Numbered from the stretch's first letter, positions 23,035 to 26,833 are shown. The stretch: 30,231 nucleotides of DNA from Candidatus Nealsonbacteria bacterium CG08_land_8_20_14_0_20_36_22 (GCA_002774555.1 PEYC01000017.1:1-30231); one strand, 5' to 3'. Notes: generated by a model from the sequence alone, not told the origin. Made by a program: numbers and translations.

Positions 23035-24030
23035 TTATTCACTTATAAATTGTAAGGAAATCTTTCTTTTCAATTTTTGAGTATTCCCATGTCTTAGTAG
23101 CCCAAAATATGAATTGAGTGTCTCTTTTGTTTTGTTTGTTTTTATTCTTTTAAATATTCTTCTCTTTGTAGCGTTGCGGAGTACTCGATGGTCTGGGAAA
23201 TTAACCCAACCTAAAAAATCAACCCCAGAAAATAAGGTTTTTATAAATATTTTATCGGGATGTATTAACAGTTTAAGATTATTGTTTAAAAAAGATTTTA
23301 TTTCAGGCACCAAACTTTCTATCCATTTTTTATTATGATTTAAAATAACAAAATCATCTGAATATCTGATATAATATTTTTCTTTAAGTTTATGTTTTAC
23401 AAATTGGTCAAATTCATTCATATAAATATTTACCAAAAGCTGTGATGTTAAATTACCAAGGGGCAGACCAACCCCGGGTTTTATAGAATAAAAACTATCA
23501 ATAATCTCTCCTAAAAGCCATAGAATATTTTTATCCGGAATATATTTACTTAAAATATTTTTTAATATTTTATGATTTATGCTCGCAAAAAATTTCCTAA
23601 TATCGCATTTCAGAACCCAACAGGTTTTTGTATTATTTTTGCTGACTACATAATAGAAATCTATAAACCTTTTTATTGCTTTATACATTCCCTTTTCTAA
23701 CCGACACGAATAAGAGTCGGAAATAAATATTCTCTCAAAAAACGGATACAATATGCGATATACCGCATGATGGACTAACCTGTCGCGAATGCTCGCCTTA
23801 TGGATATTTCTCGGTTTTGGGTCACAGATATTAAATGCTTGATAGCCACCGTGTTTATAGGTATGATTAACTAAATCTTGTTGCAAAGACAGAATATTAT
23901 CCATTAAATTGAAAGAAAACTTCTGCACATCTTTCTTGTTTCTTTTTCCTTTAATAAATTCCTGCCAAGCCAAAAGCAAATTATTAACGCTTACTATATC
24001 CTCAAATTTATGGGTCAATTGAATCTTCAT
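23035..24030 (-). CDS. DGR reverse transcriptase
   Basis: KPRNIHKASIRDRLVHHA, KCDIRKFF, GLPLGNLTSQ, YIRYSDDFV, VDFLGW; no maturase/endonuclease tail. ATG 24030 with AAAGGA upstream; an in-frame TTG at 24093 is an alternative start. Confidence 0.93.
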   Translation of the reverse strand: MKIQLTHKFEDIVSVNNLLLAWQEFIKGKRNKKDVQKFSFNLMDNILSLQQDLVNHTYKHGGYQAFNICDPKPRNIHKASIRDRLVHHAVYRILYPFFERIFISDSYSCRLEKGMYKAIKRFIDFYYVVSKNNTKTCWVLKCDIRKFFASINHKILKNILSKYIPDKNILWLLGEIIDSFYSIKPGVGLPLGNLTSQLLVNIYMNEFDQFVKHKLKEKYYIRYSDDFVILNHNKKWIESLVPEIKSFLNNNLKLLIHPDKIFIKTLFSGVDFLGWVNFPDHRVLRNATKRRIFKRIKTNKTKETLNSYFGLLRHGNTQKLKRKISLQFISE

Positions 24031-24046
24031 AATTGTTCCTTTAATA

Positions 24047-24055
24047 CCCCCCCCC
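24047..24055. repeat. C9/G9 homopolymer between the divergent avd and RT starts
   Basis: TTAATA-CCCCCCCCC-AACC read directly from the sequence. Confidence 0.9.
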
Positions 24056-24073
24056 AACCAGTCAAATTTAAGT

Positions 24074-24397
24074 TTGGTGCAAAAATTAGTCAACGCCTAC
24101 AAGCTTTGGCATAAGTTTTTGCCTCATTTCCCAAAAACATCTCGTTATACTTTAGGGTCAAAAATTGACTCGCTTTTTATAGAAACCACTGAATCTGTAA
24201 TCAAAGCGTTTCATTCAGGCAAGGGAGAAAAATTGATTTATTTGATTCAGGCATCTGTAAAGCTTGATTTATTAAAATTCTTTTTGCAAATTGCTTGGGA
24301 AATAAAAGCGCTGGATAATAAAAAATACATTCGCCTTTCTGAAAAACTGGACGAAATCGGCAGGATGCTCGACGGCTGGTTAAAATCTCTAAAATGA
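24074..24397 (+). CDS. avd: Avd-like accessory variability determinant (four-helix bundle)
   Basis: Basic ~107-aa helical protein: FPKTSRYTLGSKID, ASVKLDLLKFFLQIAWEIK, EIGRMLDGW; adjacent to DGR RT and TR. Start codon uncertain (TTG 24074/GTG 24077). Confidence 0.85.
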   Translation: MVQKLVNAYKLWHKFLPHFPKTSRYTLGSKIDSLFIETTESVIKAFHSGKGEKLIYLIQASVKLDLLKFFLQIAWEIKALDNKKYIRLSEKLDEIGRMLDGWLKSLK

Positions 24398-24508
24398 ATT
24401 TTATCATACATAATTACTTCGCTCGGTCGGAAAAGAAAAGTAAATTTTTCTTTTCCTTTCTCGCTTGTAATTATAAACCCGCCTGATTAAGGCGGGAAAC
24501 AAAGAGAT

Positions 24509-24644
24509 TTGCGCACGGCAGCGAAACGCCAGTTCTCATTCCAATCATTCTCGAACCAATTGAGGTTCAGGTTGCGCTCATCGCTATTCCAGTTCAGATA
24601 CGGCACGTGGCGGTTGCTATCCGGATTCTGCCAGACAGAACCAA
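24509..24644 (-). repeat. DGR template repeat (TR), 136 nt
   Basis: Ungapped match to 25030-25165; 33 adenines on the minus strand; 10 AAY codons in the target frame. Confidence 0.96.
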
Positions 24645-25025: not shown

Positions 25026-25574
25026 TTACTTGCGCACGGCAGCGAAACGCCAGTCCCCACCCCAACCACCCTCGAACCAAAGGAGGTGCAGGAGGCGCTC
25101 ATCGCTAAACCAGTTCAGATACGGCACGAGGCGGCTGCTAACCGGATCCTGCCAGACAGAACCAAGAGCAACAATCGGAAATTGCTTTTGCAGTCCAGGA
25201 TAAGCCGCGCCGAGAGCCAACAATTCCTCTATTCTAGCGGGACGGAAGCCCTGCTTTTCCATTTCGGCAATGGCGTCGCCAGAAGAAATGTTCTTTCCGA
25301 AACAGAAAAGAACGATTTCCTCTTCTTGCTTACCGCTCCCAGCAATTGGAAAATGTTCCTGAGTGATATCGTTGTTCACCCAGCCGTAGTTGCCAGCTTT
25401 GATCATTTGGGCAAGGGTTTGACTATAGTCAACTATAACCATGGATGTTTGTCGTTGATTTTCCATCTCTTTGCCCACCAGTTCGCCTGATAGCAACTTA
25501 TTGACGCCATTCATTCCGCCCAATTTGTTAACAACTGCTTCAATCTGCCCCAATGTTAATTCTCCGTACTTCAT
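25026..25574 (-). CDS. DGR target protein with C-terminal variable region (probable CLec-like fold)
   Basis: VR encodes the C-terminal GSVWQDPVSSRLVPYLNWFSDERLLHLLWFEGGWGGDWRFAAVRK; start ATG 25574 (or 25583); fold inferred from DGR knowledge. Confidence 0.88.
   Translation of the reverse strand: MKYGELTLGQIEAVVNKLGGMNGVNKLLSGELVGKEMENQRQTSMVIVDYSQTLAQMIKAGNYGWVNNDITQEHFPIAGSGKQEEEIVLFCFGKNISSGDAIAEMEKQGFRPARIEELLALGAAYPGLQKQFPIVALGSVWQDPVSSRLVPYLNWFSDERLLHLLWFEGGWGGDWRFAAVRK
25030..25165 (-). repeat. DGR variable repeat (VR)
   Basis: 118/136 identical to TR; all 18 differences are at TR adenines (9 A>G, 6 A>T, 3 A>C). Confidence 0.96.
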
Positions 25575-25682
25575 AATACACATCCTTTCCCGGCTTTTTG
25601 CCGAAAAAATTCCCTCTGCCCGAGGTTTTAGGGGTCGCTAAATGCGACAATTTGTTTTATAAAAGAACACTACTCTGTCCTA

Positions 25683-25722: not shown

Positions 25723-26833
25723 CCTGAATTCAACCTGCAAGCGCAACACTTGGCATATTAATGCTAATGTTAAAACGATTCAATTTTTTTGAAAACATTT
25801 CTAAGGGTGTCTTCCAGCCGAGCCGTTTTCTGGGCCGGTGGTTAAGGTTGTTCTCAACTTCTTGTATTTCCTCGTCAGATATCATAGTAAAATCTGTTTT
25901 CTTTGGAAATAAATCTCTGATTAAGCCATTGGTATTCTCGTTGGTCCCTCTTTCCCAGGAATGATAAGCATGAGCAAAGAAACATTTAAACCCTGTTCTC
26001 TTTTCGAGCTCTTCCCATTTTTGATTTTCAAAGCCGTTATCAAAGGTAGCTGTTTGTTTCAGTCTTTGGGGTAGATTTTTAACCCTGCTTTCTATTGCCA
26101 GAACGGTGGCTTCGCTGCTTTTATCTCTTAATTTGGTGATAAGCACTAATCCTGTTTTTCTCTCAACAAACGTGTTAATTCCAGGTTTATGATCTTTTGA
26201 TTCAACTGTGTCTGACTCCCAGTCGCCTATACGAATTCTATCACTAACAATCATAGGGCGTAAATCAATAGATAATCCTTTAACAGTTGAAGATGTTCTC
26301 TGACAGCGTCTCATTCCTTTATGGGTTCTACGTTTCTTCTTTCTTCTTAAGTAGGGCCTTAAATCCTCATAACCAGGCTTCAACAATCCCCAGCCATTTC
26401 TGTGTATTTGATGATATATGAATCGGTATATTGCTTCGTGAGATATGGAATAACCGGGCAAGTCTTCTTTAATCCTGCCTGCTATCTGCTCTGGCGATGT
26501 TCTCTTCTTTAATTCTCGTATCACATAAGCTCTGATAGTGTCATTCTTTAATCTTTCTGTTCTGCCTCTTAAGCCTCTCTTTTTTAAGGCTCTTTCATGA
26601 GCTGCTCTGGGAATATATCTTCGTCTCCCAAGAGAATCCAGATTCCTCTTAATTTCTCTGGACACAGAAGAAGGTGAACGACCTAATGCCGCGGCAATGG
26701 TTCTGATTGAGGTTTTTTGCCACAACATCTCTTGTATTCTCTCCCTTTCCTCAACCGTAAAATGTGTATATTTCATATCACTTTGATAATACATTATTTT
26801 ATCAAAGTGTTGCACTTACTTGTTGAACTAACG
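25723..26833 (-). mobile_element. IS30-family insertion sequence, 1111 bp, 3-bp target duplication (CAT)
   Basis: Imperfect terminal IRs CCTGAATTCAACCTGCAAGCGCAACACTT / CGTTAGTTCAACAAGTAAGTGCAACACTT (core 19/23); CAT at 25720-22 and 26834-36. Confidence 0.9.
25730..26776 (-). CDS. IS30-family DDE transposase
   Basis: HTH IAAALGRSPSSVSREIKRN, SPEQIAGR, ISHEAIY, GDWESDT, TFDNG, WERGTNENTNGLIR; stop codon lies within the terminal IR. Confidence 0.95.
   Translation of the reverse strand: MKYTHFTVEERERIQEMLWQKTSIRTIAAALGRSPSSVSREIKRNLDSLGRRRYIPRAAHERALKKRGLRGRTERLKNDTIRAYVIRELKKRTSPEQIAGRIKEDLPGYSISHEAIYRFIYHQIHRNGWGLLKPGYEDLRPYLRRKKKRRTHKGMRRCQRTSSTVKGLSIDLRPMIVSDRIRIGDWESDTVESKDHKPGINTFVERKTGLVLITKLRDKSSEATVLAIESRVKNLPQRLKQTATFDNGFENQKWEELEKRTGFKCFFAHAYHSWERGTNENTNGLIRDLFPKKTDFTMISDEEIQEVENNLNHRPRKRLGWKTPLEMFSKKLNRFNISINMPSVALAG

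Follow-up and report, generated by a model that had tools for sequence, protein, structure and literature searches.

A cytosine repeat in the overlapping 5′ ends of avd and the reverse transcriptase gene, a putative contingency locus of diversity-generating retroelements in candidate phyla radiation bacteria

Introduction

The diversity-generating retroelement (DGR) of Bordetella phage BPP-1, ordered mtd-avd-TR-brt, combines a reverse transcriptase (RT), the four-helix-bundle protein Avd, and a template repeat (TR) paired with a variable repeat (VR) that undergoes adenine-specific mutagenesis; Avd is essential in this element (PMC5758913). Here, we describe a DGR with the same components in a stretch of 30,231 nucleotides (PEYC01000017.1:1-30231 of assembly GCA_002774555.1; hereafter, the window) from Candidatus Nealsonbacteria bacterium CG08_land_8_20_14_0_20_36_22, in which the avd gene bears a run of nine cytosines (C9) near its 5′ end. 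Unlike the avd of the window, that of BPP-1 is co-oriented with and upstream of TR, and its product has no disordered, proline-containing leader. We know of no repeat tract or phase switch in the BPP-1 DGR, and to our knowledge, little has been established about how cells regulate DGR activity. Hypermutating a functional protein without restraint should come at a high cost.

The layout TR-(avd)-RT, termed architecture B3, makes up 90% of the DGR set from the candidate phyla radiation (CPR) in the study by Wu et al. from 2018 (PMC5758913). The window has the order found in such elements (target gene with VR, TR, reversed avd, and RT), and the same layout was seen in 141 of 141 related loci. Neither the repeat nor the overlap of the avd and RT start codons is part of B3 as described (PMC5758913), where no homopolymer and no problem with the avd frame is mentioned.

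Intragenic poly-G/C contingency loci, which undergo translational phase variation by slipped-strand mispairing, have been described in Campylobacter jejuni, Neisseria, Helicobacter, and Haemophilus, with a homopolymer of at least 8 units in the 5′ coding region and a shift of frame upon the gain or loss of one unit. The locus studied here is similar in these respects, and its tract length likewise differs between near-identical strains, with phases scrambled among relatives. As in Campylobacter and Helicobacter, MutS is apparently lacking. In contrast to the pathogen loci, which gate surface structures or restriction-modification enzymes, the gated gene encodes an accessory factor of a retroelement, and it is the retroelement that hypermutates another gene. 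The hosts differ as well, being free-living or episymbiotic groundwater CPR bacteria; the divergent RT gene has the tract in its 5′ region too, and switching is here a prediction from sequence. There is a further likeness, a conceptual one only, to phasevarions and switchable mutators (phase-variable Mod methyltransferases and repeat-mediated mutL switching), in which a simple repeat randomly switches a gene that alters many downstream phenotypes or the mutation supply. These are second-order controls of variability, as the present locus would be, but they act on genome-wide methylation or mutation rate, whereas here one target gene is subject to site-directed hypermutation.

Full-text literature searches found no paper linking DGRs, Avd, or retrohoming to homopolymers, phase variation, slippage, or contingency. 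Poly-G/C contingency loci and the B3 layout are already known; what would be new is a contingency repeat that gates a targeted-hypermutation machine and is conserved across a large CPR clade. Based on the data below, we consider it probable that slipped-strand phase variation of avd gates the mutagenic homing of this DGR and that the assembly, with C9, represents an OFF or low phase. We also lean toward a broader proposal, that the repeat in the overlapping avd and RT 5′ ends is a contingency locus of DGRs throughout a CPR/Patescibacteria clade, toggling hypermutation randomly and heritably, and that it is the first known DGR regulation of this type.

A cytosine tract sets ATG 24010 one frame off the Avd body

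The features at the head of avd are as follows.

24047 to 24055, plus strand: C9 homopolymer (simple-sequence repeat), an exact run; G9 on the minus strand
24010 to 24114, plus strand: out-of-frame 5′ leader of avd, with ATG 24010, 34 sense codons, and TAA 24112-24114
24074 to 24397, plus strand: four-helix-bundle body of Avd, running for 107 codons from TTG 24074 and matching Pfam bAvd
23035 to 24030, minus strand: DGR reverse transcriptase, 331 amino acids (aa) from ATG 24030, with a match to RVT_1 (E = 4.2e-21)
24010 to 24030, both strands: head-to-head overlap of the avd and RT start codons, 21 nt, a quasi-palindrome (ATG..CAATTG..CAT)

The C9 run is not a chance feature, because the window (35% GC) holds only one further C or G run of at least 6, a C6, and because 0.013 C runs of at least 9 are expected per window if bases are independent and identically distributed. 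It is also the longest G/C run in the genome, where 13 such runs of at least 7 were found in 510,666 bases (35.5% GC). Four further C8/G8 runs are present in this 35%-GC genome (C15:6239, C53:5968, C55:197, and C4:8799), several of them apparently intergenic and in AT-rich surroundings; these could be other contingency tracts.

The Avd body matches Pfam bAvd (PF22296; E = 7.9e-18) over profile positions 5 to 106 of 107. At its head, TTG 24074 and then GTG 24077 are in the avd frame, and a gap of 43 bp separates TTG 24074 from the RT ATG, which reads as CAT at 24028 to 24030 on the plus strand. The positions of the RT ATG, of TTG 24074, and of the tract agree with the original prediction, which was made from the sequence alone and placed the tract between the divergent starts of avd and RT. 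The tract does lie between the RT ATG and TTG 24074, but the true avd start, ATG 24010, overlaps the RT ATG by 21 nt. Within this overlap, each strand is read through seven codons, and the codon boundaries of the two strands coincide, with Avd M-G-Q-L-N-L-H lying opposite RT M-K-I-Q-L-T-H. As the two start codons overlap head to head, the two mRNAs must overlap in antisense at their 5′ ends.

Translation from ATG 24010 is one frame off the Avd body and ends at TAA 24112-24114. Removing one C (C8) joins this ATG to the body in an open reading frame (ORF) at 24010 to 24397, which encodes a 128-aa protein beginning MGQLNLHNCSFNTPPNQSNLSLVQKL; both points had been predicted and were reproduced from the sequence. 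The leader peptide as it stands, beginning MGQLNLHNCSFNTPP, matches the N-terminal leader of long-form Avd homologues. At nine units, the repeat is long enough to be hypermutable (about 7 to 8 or more for G/C), and a one-unit change shifts the frame between start codon and body, as in the simple-sequence repeat contingency loci.

Evidence that avd starts upstream of the tract

A search of a protein collection returned 663 Avd relatives. Most of the best 120 are 115 to 135 aa long, versus 107 aa for the short form in the window. The extra residues of the long homologues constitute an N-terminal leader, composed of M-x-Q-L-N-F-H, a short N/Q/S-rich stretch, (P)PP, and ..(F)NLSL-IQKL, and this is the peptide that the window encodes after the loss of one C. 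The original prediction had proposed to check whether the N termini of homologues extend upstream through a polyproline stretch, and they do, through Pro-Pro(-Pro), in the form M-x-Q-L-N-F-H...PPP..NLSL-IQKL. Since most homologues carry the leader that a C8 allele would restore, the tract is located inside the 5′ coding region of avd, in a flexible leader, rather than between genes, and we take ATG 24010 to be the genuine start. In the AlphaFold model of one long-form homologue (mean predicted local distance difference test score [pLDDT], 86), leader residues 1 to 16 have a pLDDT below 50, indicating disorder, and helix 1 begins at a conserved Leu, two codons upstream of the position of the window's TTG (Leu[−2]). 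The leader can therefore tolerate changes in length.

Codon usage upstream of the TTG points in the same direction. Among related loci, the conserved Leu(−2) is encoded by TTG in 41, TTA in 28, and CTG in 23, and the conserved Pro(−1) is encoded by CCG in 31, CCA in 31, CCT in 24, and CCC in 17. This synonymous variation argues that both residues, which lie upstream of the window's TTG, are translated. Of the four Pro codons, CCC is used least by this genome (18%), and three CCC codons in a row are expected at 0.6%. As CCC is rare and yet the homopolymer is kept, while Pro(−1) uses all four codons, we conclude that selection acts on the homopolymer itself, at the DNA level.

We then considered whether the body could be translated without crossing the tract. 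An ATG, GTG, or TTG follows the tract and precedes Leu(−2) in only 8 of 141 loci; even as far as body codon 3, no such codon occurs in 40 of 90 out-of-frame loci. The TTG and GTG codons that do occur across the family are at ordinary Leu and Val positions. Shine-Dalgarno (SD)-like motifs were found between tract and body in 10 of 123 loci, a frequency equal to that of control windows (6.8%), and in the window itself, none precedes TTG 24074 or GTG 24077. Across the family, the short form is thus not rescued by an internal start codon or ribosome-binding site.

Three approaches to the start of avd were abandoned. A short-form call in the databases was dropped as a proxy for OFF, as loci L164 and L166 are called short and yet are in frame. 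No promoter was called for avd, since conservation upstream of ATG 24010 is dominated by the 3-nt periodicity of the RT codons on the opposite strand. The absence of stop codons from the leader was not discriminating: loci with stops numbered 16, 20, and 71 of 85 in the three frames, so that the second frame is also mostly open. Separately, a close relative (L165; 82% Avd identity, C8, out of frame) has an ATG as its second body codon (L165:481), a rare canonical internal start that could bypass the tract.

The repeat is conserved, while its length and frame are not

To follow the tract in relatives, we searched contigs of genomes and metagenomes with patterns taken only from the Avd body and retrieved 160 related loci, a sample that is blind to the upstream region. 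All were on CPR/Patescibacteria-type contigs. Tracts were counted in 141 loci with enough upstream sequence, the window included. RT is divergent from and upstream of avd in all 141 loci with an RT match. A C run of at least 7 occurs at the homologous place, 20 to 40 nt before the body, in 123 of 141 loci (about 87%). The most frequent lengths are C10 (39 loci), C9 (36), C11 (19), C8 (11), and C12 (8), and the range is 7 to 14 apart from one C30 (L129). In L106 and L077, a (CA)n repeat (about 8 and 13 units, about 20 to 50 nt upstream of the Avd body) is found at the tract position. Because these two loci have (CA)n in its place, the conserved feature is a slippery repeat rather than G/C content.

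For each locus, we called the frame, relative to the Avd body, of the ATG-initiated ORF running into the tract. Loci with a tract of at least 7 are distributed over frames 0, +1, and +2 as 33:40:48, which is no departure from uniformity (P = 0.25), and subsets limited to the canonical M-x-Q-x-N-F-H leader gave the same outcome. Tract lengths follow a period of three: C9 and C12 predominate among in-frame loci, C10 and C13 in frame +2, and C8, C11, and C14 in frame +1. Of the 18 loci without a long tract, by comparison, 14 are in frame (P = 1.4e-4 by a binomial test against one-third; P = 5.7e-5 by Fisher's test against the tract loci). Four are exceptions; among these, L077 has the (CA)n repeat, and in L121, the leader directly abuts the first codons of the body. 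That the frame is maintained where there is no repeat argues that the leader is translated, and that it is randomized where there is a repeat is the signature of a hypermutable contingency tract. We also tried to derive the leader frame from the RT start by tblastn extrapolation; this was noisy (19:26:42, with the ATG exactly 18 nt upstream in only 43 of 98) and was set aside.

Near-identical sequences differ in tract length

Alleles were compared at the level of the assembled contigs of sequencing runs. All sampled 31-mers of the stretch were found in eight groundwater runs. Contigs from runs X9 and X11 and an independent Joint Genome Institute metagenome contig (L167) carry C9 and are identical to the window, while a contig from run X10 is identical over 23838 to 24400 (562 nt) except for one C fewer, which yields the C8, in-frame allele. 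In a relative about 92 to 95% identical to the window (X13/L168), a C10 arose by an A-to-C change at 24046 with no indel. Among other relatives, L002 and L082, from one aquifer well, are 99.86% identical over 730 nt, and their sole difference is C10 (out of frame) versus C9 (in frame). Further pairs are L079 and L157 (C10 versus C12) and L124 and L125 (C7 versus C9). The nearest relatives of the window include both in-frame loci (L164 with C5 and L166 with C9) and out-of-frame loci (L163 with C10 and L165 with C8).

No MutS_V domain was found in this genome, which is 85% complete. This fits an absence of mismatch repair and high instability of repeats, although as weak evidence.

Taken with the family-wide tract (123 of 141 loci) and the randomized frames, these alleles support the original prediction that tract length may toggle an ATG-initiated Avd and that the present assembly may be in an OFF or reduced state.

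The tract and the RT gene

The reverse strand of the tract faces the RT gene, and a candidate promoter lies beyond it.

24065 to 24093, minus strand: promoter-like TTGACT-17-TAAATT, oriented toward the G tract and RT; candidate RT promoter by consensus match only (9/12)

On the minus strand, the G run is 16 nt upstream of the RT ATG, with AAAGGAA between them, 6 nt upstream of the ATG. As the promoter-like site ends 9 nt before the G run, the tract is probably within the RT 5′ untranslated region (UTR), and changes in its length might secondarily affect RT expression. A recurrent TTGTAA-17-GATAAT is found at a similar place in relatives; like the site in the window, it is a consensus match confounded with Avd codons. 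The G run is mostly 10 to 24 nt upstream of the RT ATG in canonical relatives (36 nt in one), and the complement of leader codon 7 (CAT) is the RT ATG in 39 of 47 loci with a canonical leader. This last figure, together with the fact that TTG 24093 opens the −35-like TTGACT, led us to reject the longer RT form starting at TTG 24093 that had been envisaged in the original prediction. The RT SD sequence is clear in the window and strict in only 9 of 39 canonical relatives; the idea that the leader residues SFN mirror this SD sequence therefore holds only in part.

Proposed switch and alternative explanations

The model that we favor places a hypermutable repeat among the first ∼15 codons of avd, in a DGR of the CPR type with the layout TR-(avd)-RT, and translation from ATG 24010 would have to cross this disordered, repeat-bearing leader before reaching the four-helix-bundle body. 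Slipped-strand mispairing during replication would add or remove C's, so that a population cycles through three frame phases, only one of which would link ATG 24010 to the Avd body. With C9, the ATG frame runs into its stop and full-length Avd would be absent, or low if made from the weak TTG/GTG. As cDNA synthesis in the characterized DGR requires Avd, mutagenic retrohoming most likely depends on the phase of the tract. Targeted hypermutation would be turned ON and OFF stochastically, in a manner both heritable and reversible. We observed the layout of the locus, the conservation of the tract across the family together with its variable length, the frame statistics, and the allele differences between near-identical sequences; the rate of switching, the disappearance of Avd in OFF phases, and any consequence for homing are inferred.

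Several points weigh against a strict version of this model. Only about 27% of the consensus alleles are in frame, and the DGR would usually be off if OFF is null. The contig with the C8 allele of the window has a depth of only 3.5. ATG 24010, like the internal codons, lacks an SD sequence; initiation from a leaderless or short-leader mRNA is possible. A product initiated at the in-frame TTG 24074 or GTG 24077 would retain nearly all of the bAvd domain, and the OFF phase may thus be a low level of Avd rather than zero. RNA or ribosome slippage could operate alongside phase variation as a source of leakiness that blurs the phases. Furthermore, much of the conservation of the leader mirrors RT signals on the opposite strand, namely, the RT N terminus and also, for the window and a subset of relatives, the RT ribosome-binding site. 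Similarity of the leader peptide is therefore no proof of translation by itself, and the case rests on the frame statistics and the absence of a bypass start.

If slippage were the whole explanation, with RNA polymerase or the ribosome slipping on CCC CCC C (in the latter case by re-pairing of proline tRNAs during a polyproline stall) and Avd produced from every tract length, the tract would be an attenuator holding Avd at a low level and not a switch. The tract is indeed a perfect slippery sequence, it encodes Pro-Pro(-Pro), and polyproline motifs stall ribosomes. Such leaky expression would also make it easier to live with about two-thirds of consensus alleles being out of frame, and it would agree with the lack of an internal start signal across the family. 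Programmed sites, however, hold one fixed offset among relatives, and here all three frames are about equally common (33:40:48). Loci without a tract are simply in frame, the (CA)n replacements are not ribosomal slippery sites, and length differences are seen directly in the DNA of near-identical sequences. We therefore regard recoding in place of switching as unlikely.

It is likewise unlikely that the repeat is kept for the sake of RT, as a G run in the promoter region or 5′ end of its mRNA that tunes RT, with avd starting internally and its frame irrelevant. Under this explanation, 14 of 18 loci without a tract would not be expected to keep the ATG in frame, nor would synonymous evolution be expected of Leu(−2) and Pro(−1), which precede the window's TTG, and the start codons and SD motifs between tract and body are at background level. 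Lengths of C7 to C14, a C30, and (CA)n are also hard to fit to a spacing-dependent promoter or a G-specific RNA element. What speaks for a role in RT is the promoter-like site ending just before the G run and the position of this run, which in canonical relatives mostly precedes the RT ATG by 10 to 24 nt and so very likely belongs to the RT 5′ UTR; the mirroring of RT signals by the leader peptide and the coverage of nearly the entire bAvd profile by the short form are in line with it as well. A sequencing or assembly error in the homopolymer, or a frameshifted avd pseudogene in a dying DGR, we consider very improbable. Homopolymers are error prone, and the C8 contig is of low depth, but the sampled 31-mers are present in eight runs, three contigs (X9, X11, and L167) agree on C9, and 123 of 141 divergent loci, sequenced in many studies, have this tract at the corresponding position. 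The VR shows 18 adenine-specific differences, and RT, TR, and the Avd body are intact.

Were phase variation of avd confirmed, the mutator would be off in most cells and turned on at the rate of slippage, with no sensor, as a population-level answer to the problem of DGR regulation. Most cells would keep the diversified protein fixed, and a minority would rediversify it. Tract phase would then be a predictor to be considered when DGR "activity" is read from metagenomes, and the switch would account for avd often being annotated as short, misstarted, or missing in CPR genomes. Ultrasmall groundwater bacteria would also be shown to use contingency loci, which have been described mainly in host-adapted pathogens.

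The surrounding DGR and neighboring genes

The remaining parts of the element are located beyond the 3′ end of avd.

24478 to 24496, minus strand: GC-rich hairpin with a T-rich tail, terminator-like, directly after TR
24509 to 24644, minus strand: TR, 87% identical to VR
25026 to 25583, minus strand: DGR target gene, 185 aa, with VR at 25030 to 25165

The DGR at this locus is a real element. Its order is target-TR-(avd)-RT with avd reversed between TR and RT, which is architecture B3, and the RT, the TR/VR pair, and Avd are all present. The RT translation contains LPLGNLTSQ, the SQ-type motif 4 typical of DGR RTs. Inside the repeat, all TR/VR mismatches are at TR adenines (A to N on the minus strand). 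The 185-aa product of the target gene has no Pfam match. The hairpin after TR looks like an intrinsic terminator, which suggests that RT has a separate transcript and that the template RNA is short.

This genome has a second bAvd-like four-helix-bundle gene, on contig C34 (L162:1477-1824), with a score of 31.6 bits, under the Pfam cutoff. No RT is visible on this 4-kb contig, and the neighbors of the gene are pilin-like genes (N-terminal FTLIELIIV) and a gene for a prepilin-peptidase-like membrane protein. In the window, an IS30-like transposase gene (25730 to 26815, minus strand), with HTH_38 and a weak rve match, immediately adjoins the DGR target gene.

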